A DNA stretch of 64,000 bases, from positions 25,837-89,836 of the forward strand of contig JAFGEL010000062.1 in the NCBI GenBank assembly GCA_016931615.1. The letters run 5' to 3'. The notes beneath the pieces were generated by a model that worked only from the letters and a program-made list of their open reading frames with translations, had not been told where the DNA came from and did not search any database. Shown here in pieces: positions 53,132-60,876 of this stretch. The stretch's first letter is position 1. Each line of letters starts with the position of its first letter. The position numbers were made by a program, and so were the translations under genes. Source of the stretch: Desulfuromonadales bacterium. GTDB lineage: Bacteria; Desulfobacterota; Desulfuromonadia; Desulfuromonadales; Geopsychrobacteraceae.

Positions 53132-53899
53132 ATGAAAAAAATGTTGTTGGGCCTGTTAATGGCCTCGGTATTGAGCTTTGGTACAAATGCCATGGCAGCT
53201 TCATATGCGGACATCGCGTTTGTCATTGATCAATCAGGAAGTATGGGCGGAGAATTCGCTTGGCTCGGTAACAGTATCGCTGGCATCGATAATACCATTA
53301 CGAGTGATTCAGCTATCACAGATGTGAACTACGGTGTGGCAGGTTATGAAACTTATGCCGGTTTTGCGGATTCCCGTAATGCTTGGGCGGATATTACATC
53401 AGATATCAATGTCATTACTACTGAAGTCAATTCTGTTAGTACCTATGGGGGGACTGAGAGGGGTTATCATGCAGCTGATTGGGCTGCTGATAATTTCTCA
53501 TGGACCGGTGGTGCCTATGCCAAGGTCATGGTTCTTATTACTGATGAGGATGCTGATTCTGCCAGCTCGTATAGTTACGGTAGTTTGTACGGCGAAGCAG
53601 CACTGGCTCAGAAAATGGCTGATAGTAATATACTTTTGAATGTTATTACCTCAACAGGCCTTTATTATGTGTGGGATGATGCAGTTTTCGTTAACCCTTC
53701 CAACAATTTTGAAGGCCTTTTTGATTTGAATTATCTGAGAACTGATGCAGCTGGATTTACTGCGGCTTTTACAGCAGCAAAACTTGCTGAGATCATTATT
53801 GTTGACCCCAATCAACCAGTTCCTGAGCCGAGTACTTTCCTTCTTCTTGGTGGAGGTTTGGTAGGTTTGGCTTTTGCCCGCAGGAAAATGAAAAAATAA
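53132..53899 (+). CDS. vWA-domain protein with PEP-CTERM sorting signal
   Basis: A signal peptide is present. The vWA MIDAS motif is DIAFVIDQSGSMGG. The C-terminal VPEPSTFLLLGGGLVGLAFARRKMKK gives a PEP motif, a TM segment and a basic tail. Confidence 0.87.
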   Translation: MKKMLLGLLMASVLSFGTNAMAASYADIAFVIDQSGSMGGEFAWLGNSIAGIDNTITSDSAITDVNYGVAGYETYAGFADSRNAWADITSDINVITTEVNSVSTYGGTERGYHAADWAADNFSWTGGAYAKVMVLITDEDADSASSYSYGSLYGEAALAQKMADSNILLNVITSTGLYYVWDDAVFVNPSNNFEGLFDLNYLRTDAAGFTAAFTAAKLAEIIIVDPNQPVPEPSTFLLLGGGLVGLAFARRKMKK

Positions 53900-53933
53900 A
53901 ATTTCAACACTGAACTATAAAATGTAATATAAG

Positions 53934-53960
53934 AAGGGTGCTTTTGGGCACCCTTTTTTG
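53934..53960 (+). terminator. rho-independent terminator after the PEP-CTERM gene
   Basis: The hairpin GGGTGC-TTTTGG-GCACCC is followed by TTTTTT. Confidence 0.6.
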
Positions 53961-54015
53961 TTTTTACTGACCAATTTGTCGGTATTTTTTACACATAACC
54001 GAGTGTGCTGAGATT

Positions 54016-55032
54016 TTGATGAAGATAAAACGTAAACCCGGCCGTGCACCCAAAAAATACAGTCAGGCTTCACGTCTCCATGACCTGATCCGTATTCTGG
54101 AATCGCGTTACGGGGCGACGGTTGACGAGCTGGTGGAAGAATGTGGGGTGACGCGGCGGACGATTTATCGAGACCTGGAGGCGATCATAGATGCCGGTTA
54201 TCCTTTGGTGAGCGAGCGGCAGGATGACGGGCACGTACTTTACAGCTTCATTTCCGGCTTCAGTAAAATGCCGCCGATCACGTTTTCTCTTGAAGAGCTG
54301 ATGACCCTGTACCTCTGCCGTGGGCAGCTGGAATTTCTTCACGGAACACCTTTTCACGATGATCTGCAGGCGATTTTTTCACGTATCCGTTCCAACTTGC
54401 CGCCCCGCAGTGTGGCCCACCTGGAGCGGCTGGCTGAGGCCTCATCTCCCCGGTTTCTCGGCTTCAAGGATTATTCCCACCAGAGCGAGTTATTGAAACA
54501 GCTGCGCCAGGCTTTGTTGAAGCAGCATCGTTGCCGGATGAATTATCGCCCCGCCAACCGTGAACCGGCAGAATACCTGGTTGATCCTTACACGCTGCTG
54601 TTTTTCAAAAACGGACTTTATATCGGCGGTTACGCGCACAACCGTGAATCGCTCCGGCTTTTTGCTGTTGAACGTATTGAGCGCCTGGAGTTGCAGGACG
54701 AACGTTTTGAAGTGCCGGAAGATTATCGTGTCGACATGCTGACCGGCACGGCCTTCGGGTTGATCGAAGAAGGGGAAAGTCATCATCTTGAAATTTATTT
54801 CAGTTCAGAGGTTGCGCATTACATCCGAGAAAGAATCTGGCACCCGGAACAGCAGATTGAAGAACAGGAAGATGGTGCGCTGATTCTGCGTTTCAGCGCC
54901 AGCGGTGACAAGGAGATCATGGCCTGGGTCTTCTCGTTTATTCCGCATGTCCGGGTGCTGAATCCCCAACCGATTCGTCAGCAATTCACGACTGCTTTGA
55001 AAGAAGCCCTGCGGTTTCAAGCCGAAGAATGA
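54016..55032 (+). CDS. HTH-WYL-WCX transcriptional regulator (YafY/PafBC/BrxR-like architecture)
   Basis: The N-terminal HTH is ATVDELVEECGVTRRTIYRDLEAI. The WYL domain is MNYRPANREPAEYLVDPYTLLFFKNGLYIGGY..RLFAVERI. The C-terminal WCX-like segment is WHPEQQIEEQEDGALILRF. The start is TTG at 54016 or ATG at 54019. Confidence 0.85.
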   Translation: MMKIKRKPGRAPKKYSQASRLHDLIRILESRYGATVDELVEECGVTRRTIYRDLEAIIDAGYPLVSERQDDGHVLYSFISGFSKMPPITFSLEELMTLYLCRGQLEFLHGTPFHDDLQAIFSRIRSNLPPRSVAHLERLAEASSPRFLGFKDYSHQSELLKQLRQALLKQHRCRMNYRPANREPAEYLVDPYTLLFFKNGLYIGGYAHNRESLRLFAVERIERLELQDERFEVPEDYRVDMLTGTAFGLIEEGESHHLEIYFSSEVAHYIRERIWHPEQQIEEQEDGALILRFSASGDKEIMAWVFSFIPHVRVLNPQPIRQQFTTALKEALRFQAEE

Positions 55033-55058
55033 CATAATCTGTCACACGCCTGGTCATA

Positions 55059-55454
55059 ATGAAGGATAACCACAGTTTCTCAAAGGAGGAGACGATGATC
55101 TGGTTATCCTGCATCAGCGAAAAAGATTTGTATATTGACGTGCAGAATGTCAGCTGGAACTTTCAGGATTACGAGCTGTCAGCCAAGGTTCAAGGTGTGA
55201 TCGGTGACGGTGCCCGGGAAAACTGGTGTGAAATGACTCTTGGGGCTGAAGAAGCGATACAGATTTTCCCAGTCTGGAATGAAGACGGCAGTGTCGAGTC
55301 TCTGGTAGAGAGTGTTGATGAGTCTGTGCTGGGTCAACAACTGCTTGCTGAAGTCGGAAAATATCTCTACGATAAGAACCTGTTCAAACCCGTCCTTGTG
55401 GCAGAGGACATTGAACGGCAACCAAGAGAAATGAACGCACAGCTTGCGGCTTAA
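55059..55454 (+). CDS. hypothetical acidic protein
   Basis: This is a 131-aa ORF (possibly starting at MIWLS, 55095). I recognise no family. Confidence 0.35.
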   Translation: MKDNHSFSKEETMIWLSCISEKDLYIDVQNVSWNFQDYELSAKVQGVIGDGARENWCEMTLGAEEAIQIFPVWNEDGSVESLVESVDESVLGQQLLAEVGKYLYDKNLFKPVLVAEDIERQPREMNAQLAA

Positions 55455-55497: not shown

Positions 55498-56088
55498 ATG
55501 AGACAGATCGTTTTGGCTTCGACGAGCCCCTACCGGCAAAAGTTGCTGCGCCAACTGGGTTTGCCGTTTACTACCGCTGCCCCCGACTATGCTGAAGAAA
55601 TCGATCCGAATGTCGCCCCGGCGTTGCTGGTGCGGCATCTGGCTCAGGGTAAAGCCCAGAGCCTGGTAGAACGCTATCCTGACGCCCTGATCATCGGTTC
55701 TGACCAGGTGTTCGTTGATCAGCGTGATCGACCCGTTGGAAAACCCGGCACCATGCACAGGGCATTTCTGCAGCTCAAGCAGATGTCGGGGCGCAGTCAT
55801 TGTTTTTTTACCGGTCTGGCAGTCGTTGACAGTCGCACTGGGGTTGCGCACTCCGATTTTGCTACTTTTACCGTCACGTTCAGAACCCTGAGCGATGATC
55901 AGATCAACAATTATCTGCACAGAGAACACCCTCTTGACTGTGCTGGGGCTTTTAAAATCGAAGGTCTGGGTATTGCCCTGATGGAAAAAATGGAGGGCGA
56001 TGACTATAACAGCCTGATCGGCTTGCCCTTGATCAAACTGGTGACCCTTCTGGATCAATTCGGCGTCAGTGTTTTGTCTGGTCTATGA
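55498..56088 (+). CDS. maf: Maf family nucleoside triphosphate pyrophosphatase (YceF-like)
   Basis: The motifs are IVLASTSPYRQKLL, IIGSDQV, GKP and AGAFKIEGLG. Length is 196 aa. Confidence 0.88.
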   Translation: MRQIVLASTSPYRQKLLRQLGLPFTTAAPDYAEEIDPNVAPALLVRHLAQGKAQSLVERYPDALIIGSDQVFVDQRDRPVGKPGTMHRAFLQLKQMSGRSHCFFTGLAVVDSRTGVAHSDFATFTVTFRTLSDDQINNYLHREHPLDCAGAFKIEGLGIALMEKMEGDDYNSLIGLPLIKLVTLLDQFGVSVLSGL

Positions 56089-56165
56089 GCGAAATGAGAA
56101 GCCTCTTATTTTGCTTGATTTATTCTTGAAAGCTGGTTAAAATCCCGCCAAGATATAAAAAAGCG

Positions 56166-56250
56166 ATCTACCGAAAGGGCAAAGCCGGGGTGACCCGGTG
56201 ACGCAAAGCCACGGGTCCAGTCCAGGGACAGCCGGGTTGCCGAAGAAGAT
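56166..56250 (+). ncRNA. GEMM-I (c-di-GMP-I class) riboswitch aptamer, copy 1
   Basis: The GEMM-I core is present: GGGCAAAG-CCGGG-GUGA(GNRA)-CCCGG-U-GACGCAAAGCC-ACGGG...CCGGGUUGCCGAAG. This matches the conserved GGGCAAA, GACGCAAAGCC and GGGUU(A/G)CCGA blocks of Vc2-type aptamers. Confidence 0.8.
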
Positions 56251-56295
56251 GCAGCGCATTTCTTCAAGCCTTTCATAAAAATATGACTTGAGAAG

Positions 56296-56335
56296 CGCTC
56301 ACTTCGGCAACGGGGTGAGCGTTTTTTTGTTTTTG
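56296..56335 (+). terminator. intrinsic terminator = expression platform of riboswitch copy 1
   Basis: The stem CGCTCAC-(12 nt)-GTGAGCG is followed by TTTTTTTGTTTTT. Confidence 0.7.
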
Positions 56336-56409
56336 CTATAATTGAGATGTTGATCATCTTTTTTGAAGGTTGTGTAAAGTTATCAGGTAAGTCGTAGTAT
56401 CAGATTATA

Positions 56410-56490
56410 TCTCCGAAAGGGCAAAGCCGGGGTGACCCGGTGACGCAAAGCCACGGGTCCCATTCAGGGACAGCCGGGTTGCCGAAGAGA
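56410..56490 (+). ncRNA. GEMM-I (c-di-GMP-I class) riboswitch aptamer, copy 2
   Basis: It is near-identical to copy 1 over ~90 nt, differing in a few bases in the P3 loop and P1. The P1 pairing is preserved in both copies with a shifted register (ATCT/AGAT in copy 1, TCTC/GAGA in copy 2). Confidence 0.8.
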
Positions 56491-56526
56491 ATGCAGCGCA
56501 TTCAGTTTCCAGCATCCCGGATTTTC

Positions 56527-56566
56527 AATGCGCTCATCTTCGGCAACGTTGGTGAGCGCATTTTTT
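56527..56566 (+). terminator. intrinsic terminator = expression platform of riboswitch copy 2
   Basis: The stem AATGCGCTCA-(16 nt)-TGAGCGCATT is followed by TTTT (T6 counting the terminal TT of the 3' arm). The upstream segment AGCGCATT (56495-56502) can alternatively pair with the 5' arm. Confidence 0.7.
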
Positions 56567-56601
56567 GCCTTGGCAGTCAAGAAAGGAAATCGGGGGTCAA
56601 A

Positions 56602-59600
56602 ATGAAAAGACACATTTGTTGGCAGCAGTTTTTATTGGCGATGGTTGTCGTGTTCTTTCCCTTGAACGTTTGTGCAAAGACAGTGACACTCTCCTGGGAC
56701 CCGAGTCCAAGCACGATCACCGGGTACAAAATCTACTATGCTGTGAATTCGTCCACTGTCCCCCTTGAAGGGACCGGGGCAACGGAAGGGGACTCGCCGA
56801 TTGATGTTGGGAATGTCCTCACCTTTACCATCAACGGGCTGTCTGACGCGGATGACCACTACTTTGCGGTCACGGCCACCGATGGAACCAACGAAAGTGT
56901 CTACTCCAACACAGTTCACAGCCCGCCGGTGACGAGCAGCAATAGCGCCCCGGAACTTTCTTCTATCGGGAACAAGTCTGTTCTGGAAAATGCCCTCCTT
57001 AATTTTACTGTAATAGCCAACGATGCTGATGGTGACGCTTTGACCTACGGTGTCGAAAATCTTCCGGATGGCGCCGGGTTCAATTCAACAACCGGACAAT
57101 TCAGCTGGACCCCGAATTTTACCCAATCGGGTCTTTATAATTTAGTTTTCAGTGTGACTGACGGCACCGCCAGCGATTCCGAGGCGATTCAGATTACCGT
57201 GACGGATGTTGTGAACAATCAGCCACCGGTATTGAATCCGATCGGGACTCAGACGATCGGTGAAGGGTCCCAGTTAATCTTTACCATTTCCGGCAGTGAC
57301 CCCGACGGTGATGCCTTGACCTACAGTGTGTCTGAACTCCCCGCGGGTTCATTCTTTAATCCGACGACCCGTCTGTTTAACTGGATTCCTGATTTTGACG
57401 ACTCAGTTAATACCAGGGTGTATCCCGTGACCTTTACGGTCAGTGATGGGCTTGCTCAGGATTCGGAAACCGTCACGATCAATGTGACTCATGTCAATCG
57501 TGCTCCGACGCTTGAGGCGATCGGGTCACAATCAATGACTGAATGGGACAGTTTCAACCTTGTTGTCAGCGGGTCGGATCCGGATAACGATGCCTTGACG
57601 TACAGTGCGACCGGGCTACCCGAAGGGGCTGTTTTTACTCCCTCAACCCGGTCATTCAGCTGGATTCCGGACATCAATCAGGCCGGAATCTATCAGGTTG
57701 TCTTCAGTGTCACTGACGGGCTACTGAGTGCTACGGAGACAGTCACCATGACTGTTCTCAATGCCAACGAAGCACCGGTTCTTGCCCCTGTCGGCAGTCA
57801 GTCCGTCAGCGAGGGGGAACTGCTGTCATTTGCTCTTTCGGCAACTGATGTCAACGGTGATCCTCTCAGTTACAATGCCACCGAACTGCCGTCTGGGGCA
57901 GCTTTCGACAATGCCACTCAACGCTTCAGCTGGACGCCTGACTATGATCAAGCCGGAAATTTTACTGTCGAATTCAATGTGAGTGACGGCACTCTAAGTG
58001 ATTCCGAAAGTGTTTCAATAACCGTCAGCAATACAAACAGGCCGCCCACGATCAGCGGTTCTGCGGTCAGCTCGGTGATGGCCACAACTGCTTACCAGTT
58101 TGTTCCCACGGCCGGGGATCCTGATGGCGACAGCCTGACATTCAGCATCGAAAATAAGCCGTCATGGGCAGTGTTTGATGCTGACAGCGGGGCTTTGTCC
58201 GGTACTCCGGATATGGGCCAGACGGGGACTTATCCCGGAATTACCATCACCGTATCCGACGCTGCTGCAGCGACATCATTGCCGGCCTTTGCCATCGAAG
58301 TGACCGCCTATGTTGCTCAGGATTCAGATGGGGACGGAGTTCTTGATCATCTTGATGCTTTCCCGGACGATCCCGCGGAATGGGAGGATACCGACGGAGA
58401 TCAACTCGGGAACAATGCGGACCCTGATGATGACAATGACGGGGTCGCCGATATTCGCGACGGGTTTCCTCTTGATAACAGCAGGGCTGGTTGGGTCATC
58501 ACGGCCACGGCAGGGACCGGTGGGTACATCAACCCCGACGGAGAAACAACTGTTCTCTACGGTGGTTCACAGGCCTATGAACTGACGCCTCTGGCCGGTT
58601 ACTACATGAATGATCTGCTGGTTGACGGGGTATCGGTCGGTCTGATGGAACAGTATGAATTTATCAACATTGATGATCATCATCAGATCGAAGGCGTTTT
58701 TGCACCAATCCCGACCGGGCTCAGTTATGACCCGCTGTCTATCGGATTGATCGGGGTTGATCGGGTTGACGGTGGTGATGACGCTAACAATCTGGTTGAC
58801 AATAAACCGAAGCAGGACCTCGATTATCGCTTCACTATCGTCCTGCGTGATTCAGCACCCGCTGATCAACGGCGTGTCTACCTGGTTCTGAACAGCTATA
58901 AATATCAGCTGCAGTTGGAAAACGGCGCTTTGAGTACTGGTGCTGAATATGCGCTTTCCACCCGTTTAGGTCCGGCTCACTCCCACCAGTTCCATTTTGT
59001 TGCCGAAGATCTTTCCGGAACGCAACTCTGGCGTTATCCGGCAAGCGGAGATCTGCCCGGGCCGATTGTCGAACTTTTAGACGGCAGAAACGTCATCGGT
59101 ATGGTTGCCGATATCAATGCCTACGGCCTGGATGCTCTGGAAGCCTTTGAAGACAAGATCGTTTACCGCTGGATTGCCGATTCGGGCCCGAACGGCTCAT
59201 TCAAACTGGCTGATACCGGTGCGCCTATCGCTTCGGGAGAAGGTTATGTCTTGAAGAAGGCAGTCGGAGGAACACTGCCGGACAGAGCGCTCTATGGAGA
59301 AATTACAGAGGCTGAGCACGAGATACAGCTGAACACCGGTTGGAACCTGATCAGTAACCCTTACGGCGGCAGAGTTGACCTCAGAGATGTCGGTGTGCGC
59401 GTCGGAGCTGCTGCTCCGCAGGGTTGGCTCGATGCCGTGGCAAGGAATCTTGTGGTTGATGCTGTCTACTCATACCTGGGGGAGGATTGGGGTGATACCA
59501 ACGAATTTGCCAGCGCCGGTGGAAGCGCTTCGGCCTACCTGATCCCGTGGATCGGTTATTGGATATATGTCAATCCCAATGAAGAGCCGGTTTCACTGGT

Positions 59601-59622
59601 GATTCCGAAGCCTTTGCAGTGA
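56602..59622 (+). CDS. large secreted surface protein: FN3-like domain, 5 cadherin-like/Ig-like repeats, thrombospondin type-3 Ca-binding repeats, C-terminal beta-rich region
   Basis: A signal peptide is present (MKRHICWQQFLLAMVVVFFPLNVCA). The FN3-like segment is VTLSWDPSPSTITGYKIYY. Five ~95-aa repeats show N.AP.L..IG.Q...E...L.F.....D.DGD.LTY....LP.GA.F......FSWTPD..Q.G.Y.V.F.V.DG. The TSP3 segment is DSDGDGVLDHLDAFPDDPAEWEDTDGDQLGNNADPDDDNDGVAD. The ATG at 56602 has a GAAAGGAAATCGGGGG RBS region. The track start at 56440 lies inside the riboswitch. Confidence 0.82.
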   Translation: MKRHICWQQFLLAMVVVFFPLNVCAKTVTLSWDPSPSTITGYKIYYAVNSSTVPLEGTGATEGDSPIDVGNVLTFTINGLSDADDHYFAVTATDGTNESVYSNTVHSPPVTSSNSAPELSSIGNKSVLENALLNFTVIANDADGDALTYGVENLPDGAGFNSTTGQFSWTPNFTQSGLYNLVFSVTDGTASDSEAIQITVTDVVNNQPPVLNPIGTQTIGEGSQLIFTISGSDPDGDALTYSVSELPAGSFFNPTTRLFNWIPDFDDSVNTRVYPVTFTVSDGLAQDSETVTINVTHVNRAPTLEAIGSQSMTEWDSFNLVVSGSDPDNDALTYSATGLPEGAVFTPSTRSFSWIPDINQAGIYQVVFSVTDGLLSATETVTMTVLNANEAPVLAPVGSQSVSEGELLSFALSATDVNGDPLSYNATELPSGAAFDNATQRFSWTPDYDQAGNFTVEFNVSDGTLSDSESVSITVSNTNRPPTISGSAVSSVMATTAYQFVPTAGDPDGDSLTFSIENKPSWAVFDADSGALSGTPDMGQTGTYPGITITVSDAAAATSLPAFAIEVTAYVAQDSDGDGVLDHLDAFPDDPAEWEDTDGDQLGNNADPDDDNDGVADIRDGFPLDNSRAGWVITATAGTGGYINPDGETTVLYGGSQAYELTPLAGYYMNDLLVDGVSVGLMEQYEFINIDDHHQIEGVFAPIPTGLSYDPLSIGLIGVDRVDGGDDANNLVDNKPKQDLDYRFTIVLRDSAPADQRRVYLVLNSYKYQLQLENGALSTGAEYALSTRLGPAHSHQFHFVAEDLSGTQLWRYPASGDLPGPIVELLDGRNVIGMVADINAYGLDALEAFEDKIVYRWIADSGPNGSFKLADTGAPIASGEGYVLKKAVGGTLPDRALYGEITEAEHEIQLNTGWNLISNPYGGRVDLRDVGVRVGAAAPQGWLDAVARNLVVDAVYSYLGEDWGDTNEFASAGGSASAYLIPWIGYWIYVNPNEEPVSLVIPKPLQ
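56941..58310 (+). repeat. five tandem ~285-bp coding repeats (cadherin-like modules) inside the surface protein gene
   Basis: The repeats are recognisable at the protein level (NSAPEL.., NNQPPVL.., NRAPTL.., NEAPVL.., NRPPTI..). They have diverged at the DNA level. Confidence 0.7.
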
Positions 59623-59637
59623 CAGGAGCGACGCGTC

Positions 59638-60876
59638 ATGAAAACTTCATATAAGTTTCTAAAATTATCGGTGTGTTTCTTCCTATTGATCCTGGCCGCC
59701 TGTAGTGGCGGAGGAGGTGGCGATTCCGACAGTACAAGTCGCACCGCTGACACTGAACTTTCGTCATCAGGCACAGAAACAACCTTGACCGGGGTCGTCG
59801 CCGATGGTTACCTGAAAAGTGCTCGAGTGTTTCTTGACCGGAATGAGAATCGTGCTTATGACAACGGCGAACCGACCGCCTTGTCGGGGCCGGGTGGGTA
59901 CTATTCTTTGACCGTTAATCCTGGTGAAGGAGAACTATACCCGGTTGTGGTTGAAGTGATTGCCGGTGAGACTGTAGATGAGGATACCGGAGCCCCGGTC
60001 ACTCAAGGGTACCTGCTGGAGTCGCCACCCGGTCGTTGGGCATTTATTTCACCTTTGACGACCCTGGTTAAGATTGAACAGGATAAAAATCCCTCGCTGT
60101 CAGAACAACAGTCCGTATTGAATGTCCGTTCTCAGCTTGGTGTGTCCGATGATGTTCCGCTTTTCTCTGATTATCTTGATACGGGGGGGATTGCTGAATC
60201 TCTTGTTGAAGAATACTCAAGAACTCATAAGGCGGCACAGGTTGTTGCCGGCCTGATGGGGATGTTACAGAATGAGATTTTGATTAATCTTGGCGGCCAG
60301 GCTGCTGTCAATGAGCAGGCTCTGATCGCCTATATGATCAGCGATCAGATCATGGGGCAGGCGCACATGATCGAGCAGGCATTCAATGCTGAAAGAAATC
60401 TCGGGGTTACTGTGGACCCGATTATTCTCGCTTCAGCAGTCAGCGCAGAGATCGATACCGCAAGCCTTGATGCTGAATTGCTGGTTGTTTATCAACAGCG
60501 GATCGATCTGGGTCTTGATTATTGGGATATGCAACCTCCTTGCCTGGTGAACCAGTATCCTCTTCCGGGAGATAACGCCCCGGTGACTACAGTTGTTTCT
60601 GTTGCCTTTGACGAAGCTTTGGACGAAACCCTGTTGAATGGCGGAAGTCTTACCTTGTCAGGGTCTGAGGGCAATATTTCAGGCCAGCTGAGTTTTGACG
60701 CCGAGCAAAAAAAACTGACTTTTGTCCCGGACCAGGTACTTCTGCCTTTCAGCGATTATCGAGTGACTTTGAGTGGTCAGTTGGCTGATTCACTGGGGAA
60801 TCCTCTGGGAGAAGATGTCAGCTGGAATTTTGTGACAATTTTCGACCAGACCCCTCCACCTCTACCCGAGTTCTGA
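59638..60876 (+). CDS. lipoprotein with C-terminal Ig-like (SbsA/Big_5-like) domain
   Basis: It has a lipobox (LLILAAC) followed by a Gly-rich linker. The C-terminal segment PLPGDNAPVTTVVSVAFDEALDETLLNGGSLTLSG..ISGQLSFDAEQKKLTFVP resembles bacterial Ig-like domains. It starts 15 nt after the surface protein gene. Confidence 0.6.
   Translation: MKTSYKFLKLSVCFFLLILAACSGGGGGDSDSTSRTADTELSSSGTETTLTGVVADGYLKSARVFLDRNENRAYDNGEPTALSGPGGYYSLTVNPGEGELYPVVVEVIAGETVDEDTGAPVTQGYLLESPPGRWAFISPLTTLVKIEQDKNPSLSEQQSVLNVRSQLGVSDDVPLFSDYLDTGGIAESLVEEYSRTHKAAQVVAGLMGMLQNEILINLGGQAAVNEQALIAYMISDQIMGQAHMIEQAFNAERNLGVTVDPIILASAVSAEIDTASLDAELLVVYQQRIDLGLDYWDMQPPCLVNQYPLPGDNAPVTTVVSVAFDEALDETLLNGGSLTLSGSEGNISGQLSFDAEQKKLTFVPDQVLLPFSDYRVTLSGQLADSLGNPLGEDVSWNFVTIFDQTPPPLPEF

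Follow-up and report, generated by a model that had tools for sequence, protein, structure and literature searches.

Why does a single leader carry two nearly identical riboswitches, each with a terminator of its own, and what has kept the two sensors alike? The question is raised by a 64-kb stretch of contig JAFGEL010000062.1 (hereafter the window), from a bacterium of the Desulfuromonadales, in which two predicted riboswitches for c-di-GMP (bis-(3'-5')-cyclic di-guanosine monophosphate) stand one behind the other upstream of a gene for an adhesin-like surface protein. The best explanation, and one that we hold to be probable, is that both units are OFF switches of the type represented by Cd1 of Clostridioides difficile, that they act in series downstream of one promoter, that the doublet is old, and that gene conversion has homogenized its aptamers. 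The aptamers, their structure and contact nucleotides, the terminators, the complementarities, the conservation of the doublet and its discordant phylogenetic signal were read directly from the results of the tools used.

Two complete riboswitches in one leader

A search of the whole window against all 4227 Rfam families returned exactly two riboswitch matches above the gathering score, both on the plus strand and both to clan CL00126 (c-di-GMP-I); their coordinates and scores, with those of the other features, are collected in Table 1. A direct repeat of 90 nucleotides (nt) runs across the two aptamers (56171-56260 and 56413-56502); its copies are 94% identical and spaced 242 nt apart. They differ only in the 5' strand of helix P1 (two columns), in the loop of P3 (three columns) and in the 3' strand of P1 (AAGAT versus AGAAT). 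In unit 1, P1 pairs ATCT-A-C-CG with CG-AA-G-A-AGAT, and P2 and then P3 follow; in unit 2 the pairing is TCTC-CG with CG-AA-GAGA. Both copies have GUGA as the tetraloop of P2; among relatives this loop reads GYAA, GUGA or GAGA.

The P1/P2/P3 model was evaluated on an alignment of 37 sequences. Its 22 pairs are formed in 96.7% of cells and seven of them have changed on both sides; none of 500 shuffles reached the observed values, and slid controls were paired to between 18 and 46%. One P1 pair varies from G-C through G.U to A-U in L084.2 and L086.2 (L numbers designate related loci), and it is this series that fixes the register of P1.

Each aptamer is followed, at a distance of about 45 nt, by an intrinsic terminator (T1 and T2), a G+C-rich hairpin with a U-run, with which it has no nucleotides in common: the aptamers extend to 56250 and 56490, and the terminators start at 56290 and 56527, respectively. 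T2, in which AATGCGCTCA pairs with TGAGCGCATT, has a minimum free energy (MFE) of -20.5 kcal/mol as a hairpin; it was missed by the terminator scanner because of two U.U mismatches in its upper stem. No open reading frame (ORF) of at least 20 amino acids (aa) is present on the plus strand between T1 and unit 2. A first-pass annotation of this DNA, made from its letters, had described two complete GEMM-I units with their own terminators in one leader upstream of a surface-protein gene, nearly identical over some 90 nt at a spacing of about 242 nt, different only in the P3 loop and the P1 strands, and with no ORF between them. The Rfam matches, the two terminators, the direct repeat, the alignment of the copies and the ORF list bear this description out.

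The predicted ligand

Alignment to the Rfam models places G, A and C at the ligand-contact positions G20, A47 and C92 of both window aptamers (in what we take to be Vc2 numbering): the G falls at model position 10, the A comes after GACGC, and the C lies within UUGCCG. Of the 37 related aptamers, 35 have G at position 20, as do the two window copies and every one of the 20 orthologous aptamers. A G at this contact position selects c-di-GMP, and an A selects c-AMP-GMP (PMC9481103). Because position 20 is G, the sequence predicts c-di-GMP, and not cyclic GMP-AMP (cGAMP), as the ligand of both aptamers, in agreement with what the first-pass annotation had read from the same residue.

The alternative is that the aptamers sense 3'3'-cGAMP, or are promiscuous, in the manner of the GEMM-Ib riboswitches of Geobacter. 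It was in the Desulfuromonadales, to which the host belongs, that cGAMP riboswitches were described, and two related metagenomic aptamers, L073 and L077, have A at position 20; set against this is the G that occupies the selecting position in the window and throughout the orthologous aptamers, and we regard sensing of cGAMP as improbable. Assignment to the GEMM-Ib class itself, which calls for an A at position 20, was likewise judged unlikely. The two exceptional aptamers (L073:755-829 and L077:2436-2510, both on the minus strand) have the same P3 and 3' strand together with this cGAMP-type signature; the terminator of L077 is without the CUUCGG element, which suggests a different platform logic.

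The clan members that scored highest were the variant families c-di-GMP-I-GGC (RF03167) and c-di-GMP-I-UAU (RF03168), whose names we take to stand for the nucleotides at three ligand-contact positions. Neither G-G-C nor U-A-U is present in the window aptamers, which have G-A-C. At the positions that distinguish the variants the window reads GGGCAAA versus aaUgCAAA, GACGCAAAG versus GACGCGAAg (GCAAAG versus GCGAAG), and UUGCCG versus UUGUCa. To judge by these nucleotides, the assignment probably reflects overall likeness to deltaproteobacterial seed sequences and not a variant binding site. Four lower-ranked clan matches, each above its own threshold, were suppressed at the window aptamers; this count and the clan matches are consistent with RF01051, the score of which is not itself displayed, also lying above threshold for both copies. 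The orthologous aptamer of L003 scores 72.5 bits on RF01051. Nearly all relatives are likewise labelled GGC or UAU through Rfam clan competition, though their G/A/C is canonical – an annotation pitfall for automated pipelines. Sub-threshold Rfam matches in the leader (Ref55, CC2171 and GlsR14) were dismissed as chance or terminator-like.

A probable single promoter for both units

Both units are likely to act in series from one promoter. The promoter scan found a single promoter-like site in 55500-57200, the probable sigma-70-type promoter at 56115-56143. Its -35 element, TTGATT(T), is invariant in all ten orthologous loci, where a TAnnnT-like -10 lies at the matching distance. The same scan found no promoter-like match in the spacer between the units, which is unconserved in sequence and length among the ten genomes and is without a shared -35 or -10.

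If a second promoter within the spacer drove unit 2 and the operon, then the units would not be in series: unit 1 would end a separate short transcript, which could be a ligand-dependent small RNA or an insulator against read-through from maf. The spacer does contain a weak match (TTGATC at 56350-56355, a 19-nt spacer, and TAAAGT at 56375-56380) that aligns with and resembles the upstream promoter, and the A+T-rich region after T1 includes TATAAT at 56337-56342. A spacing of 19 nt is unfavourable, however, no site in the spacer passes the scan, and it is the promoter upstream of unit 1, not the spacer, that the ten genomes have conserved; we give a second promoter little chance, and a conserved internal one was judged unlikely on the same grounds. 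The weak match may be what is left of a longer tract of conversion or duplication, or have arisen by chance in A+T-rich DNA. At the corresponding site L078, the closest relative of the window, has unrelated sequence. At the maf end of the leader a weak terminator-like hairpin with three G-C pairs (56086-56117) overlaps the maf stop codon and abuts the leader -35; it might limit read-through from maf.

Pairing between aptamer and terminator

In both units the 3' strand of the aptamer (GUUGCCGAAG(A) / GTTGCCGAAG(A); the A strand) is fully complementary to CTTCGGCAAC, which forms the top of the terminator 5' arm together with the loop (the T strand). The complementarity is perfect over 10 nt in unit 1, where the partner is 56302-56311 (inverted repeat I5), and over 11 nt in unit 2, where it is 56537-56547 (I4). 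To this is added a pairing of the linker that follows the aptamer: AGCGC..TTCTTCAAG in unit 1 also pairs with the base of the T1 5' arm, and AGCGCATT in unit 2 pairs with AATGCGCT, the base of the T2 5' arm. Together, the A:T pairing and the linker pairing allow the whole of the terminator 5' arm to be sequestered.

When the nascent RNA was folded up to the terminator loop, the MFE structure was precisely such a long antiterminator, at -56.4 kcal/mol for unit 1 and -61.5 kcal/mol for unit 2, the helix of AGCGCATT and AATGCGCT being part of it in the latter. Unit 2 had nine A:T pairs in this fold, whereas 300 shuffled versions of its T segment gave 0.05 on average. The pairing extends to relatives: at least six A:T pairs occur in the nascent MFE fold of 27 of 36 related units, and the longest Watson-Crick run between the two strands averages 6.8 nt in 22 distinct units versus 3.6 nt in shuffles. 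With the aptamer locked, the linker helix alone remains in the nascent fold and the top of the terminator is free; aptamer-locked folds keep the terminator in both units.

Among the ten orthologs the terminator top and loop are 100% conserved in unit 1, as against 85.6% for their partner within the terminator, and 86.9% as against 65.5% in unit 2, a difference that points to a second pairing partner. The linker helix shows one compensatory change, in L064.2 (GCGTAT/ATACGC), and wobble changes in other orthologs; the T-base:H-base pair of T2 varies among orthologs from U-A through G.U to G-C.

Direct-path estimates, which are rough upper bounds, gave barriers of 14.5 kcal/mol (unit 1) and 17.8 kcal/mol (unit 2) for passage from antiterminator to terminator in the unbound RNA, 8.2 and 9.9 kcal/mol for passage from hairpin b (a local hairpin between the P1 3' strand and the linker, GAAGAAGATGC/GCATTTCTTC in unit 1) to the antiterminator, and 1.6 kcal/mol in either unit for passage from the linker helix to the terminator with the aptamer locked. 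Left to itself, the AGCGCATT helix would thus do next to nothing, kinetically, to hold off the terminator.

Direction of switching

The first-pass annotation had proposed the pairing of AGCGCATT with the terminator 5' arm as the antiterminator of unit 2, and had considered the direction of switching undecidable by eye. The pairing is real and appears in the nascent fold; the stronger one, in which the A strand pairs with the top and loop of the terminator, had been missed, and it is because of this complementarity of 10 and 11 base pairs that a case for OFF can be made. We favour the view that both units are Cd1-type OFF switches, in which the ligand would bring about termination. Without ligand, the whole 5' arm and the loop of the terminator would be taken up by the linker and by the aptamer 3' strand (GUUGCCGAAG, in which lie the C92 equivalent and the 3' strand of P1), and RNA polymerase would read through the long antiterminator so formed. 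With c-di-GMP bound, P1 and the binding pocket would hold the 3' strand; the terminator could then nucleate from its unpaired top and bring transcription to a halt. RNA polymerase would have to get past two checkpoints in turn, so a high level of c-di-GMP should give tighter repression of the operon than a single switch could, within a narrower range of concentration. Ligand, direction, single transcript and shape of the dose-response are all what we infer from the sequence and from nearest-neighbour energetics. A more digital response, which the first-pass annotation also expected, is the standard expectation for such tandems in the literature (PMC9481103).

The opposite direction is the main rival and deserves to be weighed with care. 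If both units were ON switches, then without ligand hairpin b would occupy the linker and leave the terminator free to form; with ligand, P1 would form and the freed linker would pair with the base of the terminator 5' arm, permitting read-through. c-di-GMP would in that case turn the operon on, with the tandem acting as an AND-like gate that has the same ligand at both inputs. Several results suit this scheme. At equilibrium the MFE structure of the full-length units without ligand consists of precisely hairpin b and the terminator, the ligand-locked nascent fold has the linker paired with the terminator base, and the helix so formed is conserved, with its one compensatory and several wobble changes. 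Induction by c-di-GMP is also what is usual for adhesin-like genes. In Desulfobacca acetoxidans, the c-di-GMP-I riboswitches are predicted to be ON switches (PMC9481103). Yet with the aptamer locked the terminator would displace the linker helix across that barrier of 1.6 kcal/mol, gaining 10-14 kcal/mol in doing so. The scheme also leaves unexplained both the perfect complementarity between aptamer 3' strand and terminator top and loop, and the better conservation of that top and loop relative to their partner in the terminator. Relatives with a minimal platform, such as L065, have neither hairpin b nor linker helix and nothing except the A:T complementarity, which they keep; and in several unit-2 orthologs hairpin b is weak, by reading of their sequences. 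On balance we consider it unlikely, though worth serious attention, that the units are ON switches.

A number of observations count against our own explanation. At equilibrium the full-length unbound RNA favours hairpin b and terminator, at -68.1 kcal/mol versus -63.3 kcal/mol with the antiterminator forced, so that OFF switching depends on a kinetic trap; and the barriers on which such a trap is judged exclude the energy of the ligand, tertiary contacts and the footprint of the polymerase. Hairpin b has no necessary role in an OFF switch and would sit well with ON switching. A substitution in L081.2 and L082.2 makes the A:T pairing weaker and the pairing of the terminator stronger. c-di-GMP usually promotes adhesion, and repression of an adhesin-like protein at high c-di-GMP runs counter to this. 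Finally, the sequence comes from a metagenome-assembled genome (MAG); no independent assembly of the leader was found, and an identical protein was found only in the same MAG.

Probable concerted evolution of the aptamers

Orthologous loci were found by way of the downstream protein, the aptamer pattern and homologs of Maf. Every one of the ten Desulfuromusa-like genomes examined (eight newly fetched, and L064 and L066), whose Maf proteins are 72-86% identical to that of the window, has the doublet at this locus, and the cultured Desulfuromusa kysingii (locus L084) carries it; Pelovirga-like orthologs have a single riboswitch at this locus. Unit 1 and unit 2 each possess conserved signatures, ATCTACCG...GAAGAAGA and CACTTCGGCAACGGGGTGAGCG in the former, ATCTCCG...GAAGAGAATGC and CATCTTCGGCAAC in the latter. 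The doublet would have arisen before the divergence of the Desulfuromusa-like genomes examined.

Aptamer and platform do not tell the same history: the expression platforms sort by unit, in line with the Maf tree, whereas aptamer cores from one genome fall together in the window, in L083 and elsewhere. Between the window and L078, platforms are 93% identical for unit 1 and 87% for unit 2, and aptamer cores 82% and 88%, respectively; between the two units of the window, the cores are 96% identical and the platforms 60%. When site patterns were scored with L078, five in the aptamer grouped paralogs and two grouped orthologs, as against none and 17 in the platform (Fisher p = 0.0005). In bootstrap analysis the two window cores were mutual nearest neighbours in 98% of replicates, and the window platforms paired with their L078 orthologs in 98-99%. 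A compensatory change from A-U to G-C at the pair that closes the P2 tetraloop (alignment columns 21 and 26) is common to both window copies and is found in none of 18 other aptamers; the window states at columns 57-59 are also rare, each occurring in at most one other aptamer.

The first-pass annotation had explained the near-identity by recent duplication. The 96% identity of the cores is in keeping with that idea, as is the single riboswitch of the Pelovirga-like orthologs. A recent duplication, however, would have copied the platform too, and the window platforms resemble their L078 orthologs far more closely than each other. Ten orthologous doublets with unit-specific P1 and platform features also speak against it, and the fact that these features are held in common argues against independent duplications among the orthologs. 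Recent tandem duplication in this lineage was accordingly rejected; we find it hardly credible. Because platforms group by unit, aptamer cores group by genome, and both window copies have the same window-unique compensatory change, the near-identity of the cores indicates, as we read the sequences, gene conversion between old tandem copies, over a putative tract of at least 56189-56225.

In the Pelovirga-like loci (L003:3790-4000, L004:3730-3935 and L005:1600-1790) about 200 nt of additional leader lie between the riboswitch and the start codon; within it, a segment ..CCCCACTAACGAGCTCCAAT.. is conserved between L004 and L005.

Genes of the operon and their surroundings

The first gene downstream of the leader encodes a protein that matches the Pfam families He_PIG (E 5.4e-60) and Big_9 (E 3e-37), and its ATG start is the one given by the gene call of the source MAG, identified in the analysis as GCA_016937895.1. 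The second gene begins 15 nt past the first on the same strand, and its product matches Big_5 (E 5.3e-12). Upstream, the Maf protein is nearest to those of Desulfuromusa (72-87% identity), a lineage of the Geopsychrobacteraceae, Desulfuromonadales, Thermodesulfobacteriota. The order of the upstream neighbours (53132-55454) is kept across relatives. In L085, a related MAG labelled Desulfuromonas, maf directly adjoins a convergent DUF3422 gene (L085:2001-3958), so that the cassette of riboswitches, He_PIG gene and Big_5 gene (window 56089-60876) can be seen as an indel block between conserved neighbours.

Table 1. Positions of the riboswitch units, their pairing elements and the adjoining genes in the window.
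Feature	Position	Strand	Description
PEP-CTERM-anchored protein	53132-53899		upstream neighbour
WYL/HTH_11 regulator	54016-55032		upstream neighbour
Small protein	55059-55454		upstream neighbour, without Pfam match
maf	55498-56088		gene upstream of the leader
Leader		+	513 nt between maf and the He_PIG/cadherin-like surface-protein gene; contains both aptamers and both terminators
Probable sigma-70-type leader promoter	56115-56143	+	TTGATT, 17-nt spacer, TAAAAT
Unit 1 aptamer including P1	56166-56250	+	Rfam match 56169-56245, 63.8 bits (gathering score 59), E 9.9e-13
Putative minimal gene-conversion tract	56189-56225	+	in unit 1, matched by 56431-56467 in unit 2; window-specific derived states common to both copies
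Unit 1 A strand, GTTGCCGAAG	56236-56245	+	base of P3, C92 equivalent, P1 3' strand
Unit 1 hairpin b (GAAGAAGATGC/GCATTTCTTC) and linker	56242-56265	+	hairpin b competes with P1 (MFE folds)
T1, unit 1 intrinsic terminator	56290-56335	+	stem 56290-56327, GCAA loop, U-run; 17 pairs in terminator scan
Unit 1 T strand, CTTCGGCAAC	56302-56311	+	top of T1 5' arm plus loop
Inter-unit spacer	56336-56409	+	no ORF, no conserved promoter
Unit 2 aptamer including P1	56410-56490	+	Rfam match 56411-56487, 72.5 bits (gathering score 65.9), E 8.2e-14
Unit 2 A strand, GTTGCCGAAGA	56478-56488	+	complementary to 56537-56547
Unit 2 linker, AGCGCATT	56495-56502	+	pairs with T2 5'-arm base AATGCGCT (56527-56534)
T2, unit 2 intrinsic terminator	56527-56566	+	arms 56527-56536 and 56553-56562 (I6), then U6
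Regulated gene 1	56602-59622	+	secreted protein, 1006 aa, repeated He_PIG/Big_9/cadherin-like domains
Regulated gene 2	59638-60876	+	probable lipoprotein, 412 aa, C-terminal Big_5 immunoglobulin-like domain

Significance

The tandem arrangement of c-di-GMP-I riboswitches is already known and is the most frequent tandem of a single class; as a riboswitch, the doublet of the window is ordinary. What lends it some modest further interest is that its sensors have evolved in concert, and that an adhesin-like gene is predicted to be under OFF control, the pair being expected to repress a surface protein where the usual expectation is the opposite. Ten orthologous doublets, outgroups with a single unit and a cultured carrier, Desulfuromusa kysingii, make up a natural series in which the aptamers, but not the expression platforms, show concerted evolution. 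The series could be used to ask whether matched affinity of the two sensors matters for 'digital' switching.

In the literature that could be searched, we found no account of tandem riboswitches undergoing gene conversion or evolving in concert. We suggest, tentatively and with more doubt than confidence, that conversion between tandem aptamers is recurrent and is tolerated or favoured by selection, matching the affinity of the sensors while the platforms remain independent, and that the device is a two-stage c-di-GMP OFF gate on the adhesin-like protein. If this were true, then conversion would carry co-adapted changes in the tetraloop and in P3 together.

Comparison with known systems

The catalogue of Sherlock et al. 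2022 lists tandem c-di-GMP-I riboswitches as 347 doublets and 12 triplets, more than for any other class, and they are enriched in Thermodesulfobacteriota (PMC9481103); a triple tandem has been characterised in Bacillus thuringiensis (Zhou et al. 2016, as cited in PMC9481103). Such 'pseudo-cooperative' tandems likewise consist of two or more complete units in one leader, every unit having an expression platform to itself; genes for surface or adhesion proteins often lie downstream, and a steeper response is expected of them (PMC9481103). From these the window does not differ in kind: it adds a further example, from an uncultured relative of Desulfuromusa. Among the 16 metagenomic loci found with the aptamer pattern, six have tandems, namely the doublets L069, L071, L076, L064 and L066 and the triplet L072 (L072:10100-10628, plus strand; spacings of 219 and 232 nt).

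The GEMM-Ib riboswitches of Geobacter, for example that of pilM, resemble the window units in aptamer fold, in bacterial order and in sequence, which is very similar in P3 and in the 3' strand GCCGGGUUGCCGAAG. They have A at position 20, are ON switches, and have terminators that use the aptamer 3' strand itself (PMC9481103, PMC9262584). The window units, by contrast, have G20 and terminators separate from the aptamer, and the ON logic of pilM does not match them.

Their layout does match that of Cd1 of Clostridioides difficile, a transcriptional OFF switch of the c-di-GMP-I class (Landgraf et al. 2022; PMC9262584). The aptamer of Cd1 is separate from its terminator and can coexist with it; the antiterminator is formed between the aptamer 3' strand, binding-pocket nucleotides included, and the 5' strand of the terminator, and is only transiently stable relative to the terminator (PMC9262584). 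Cd1, from a Firmicute, stands as a single unit before flagellar genes, whereas the window has two units upstream of an adhesin-like gene, and these, unlike Cd1, have an extra local hairpin b and a linker helix. For both window units, sequence and folding predict the same three features.

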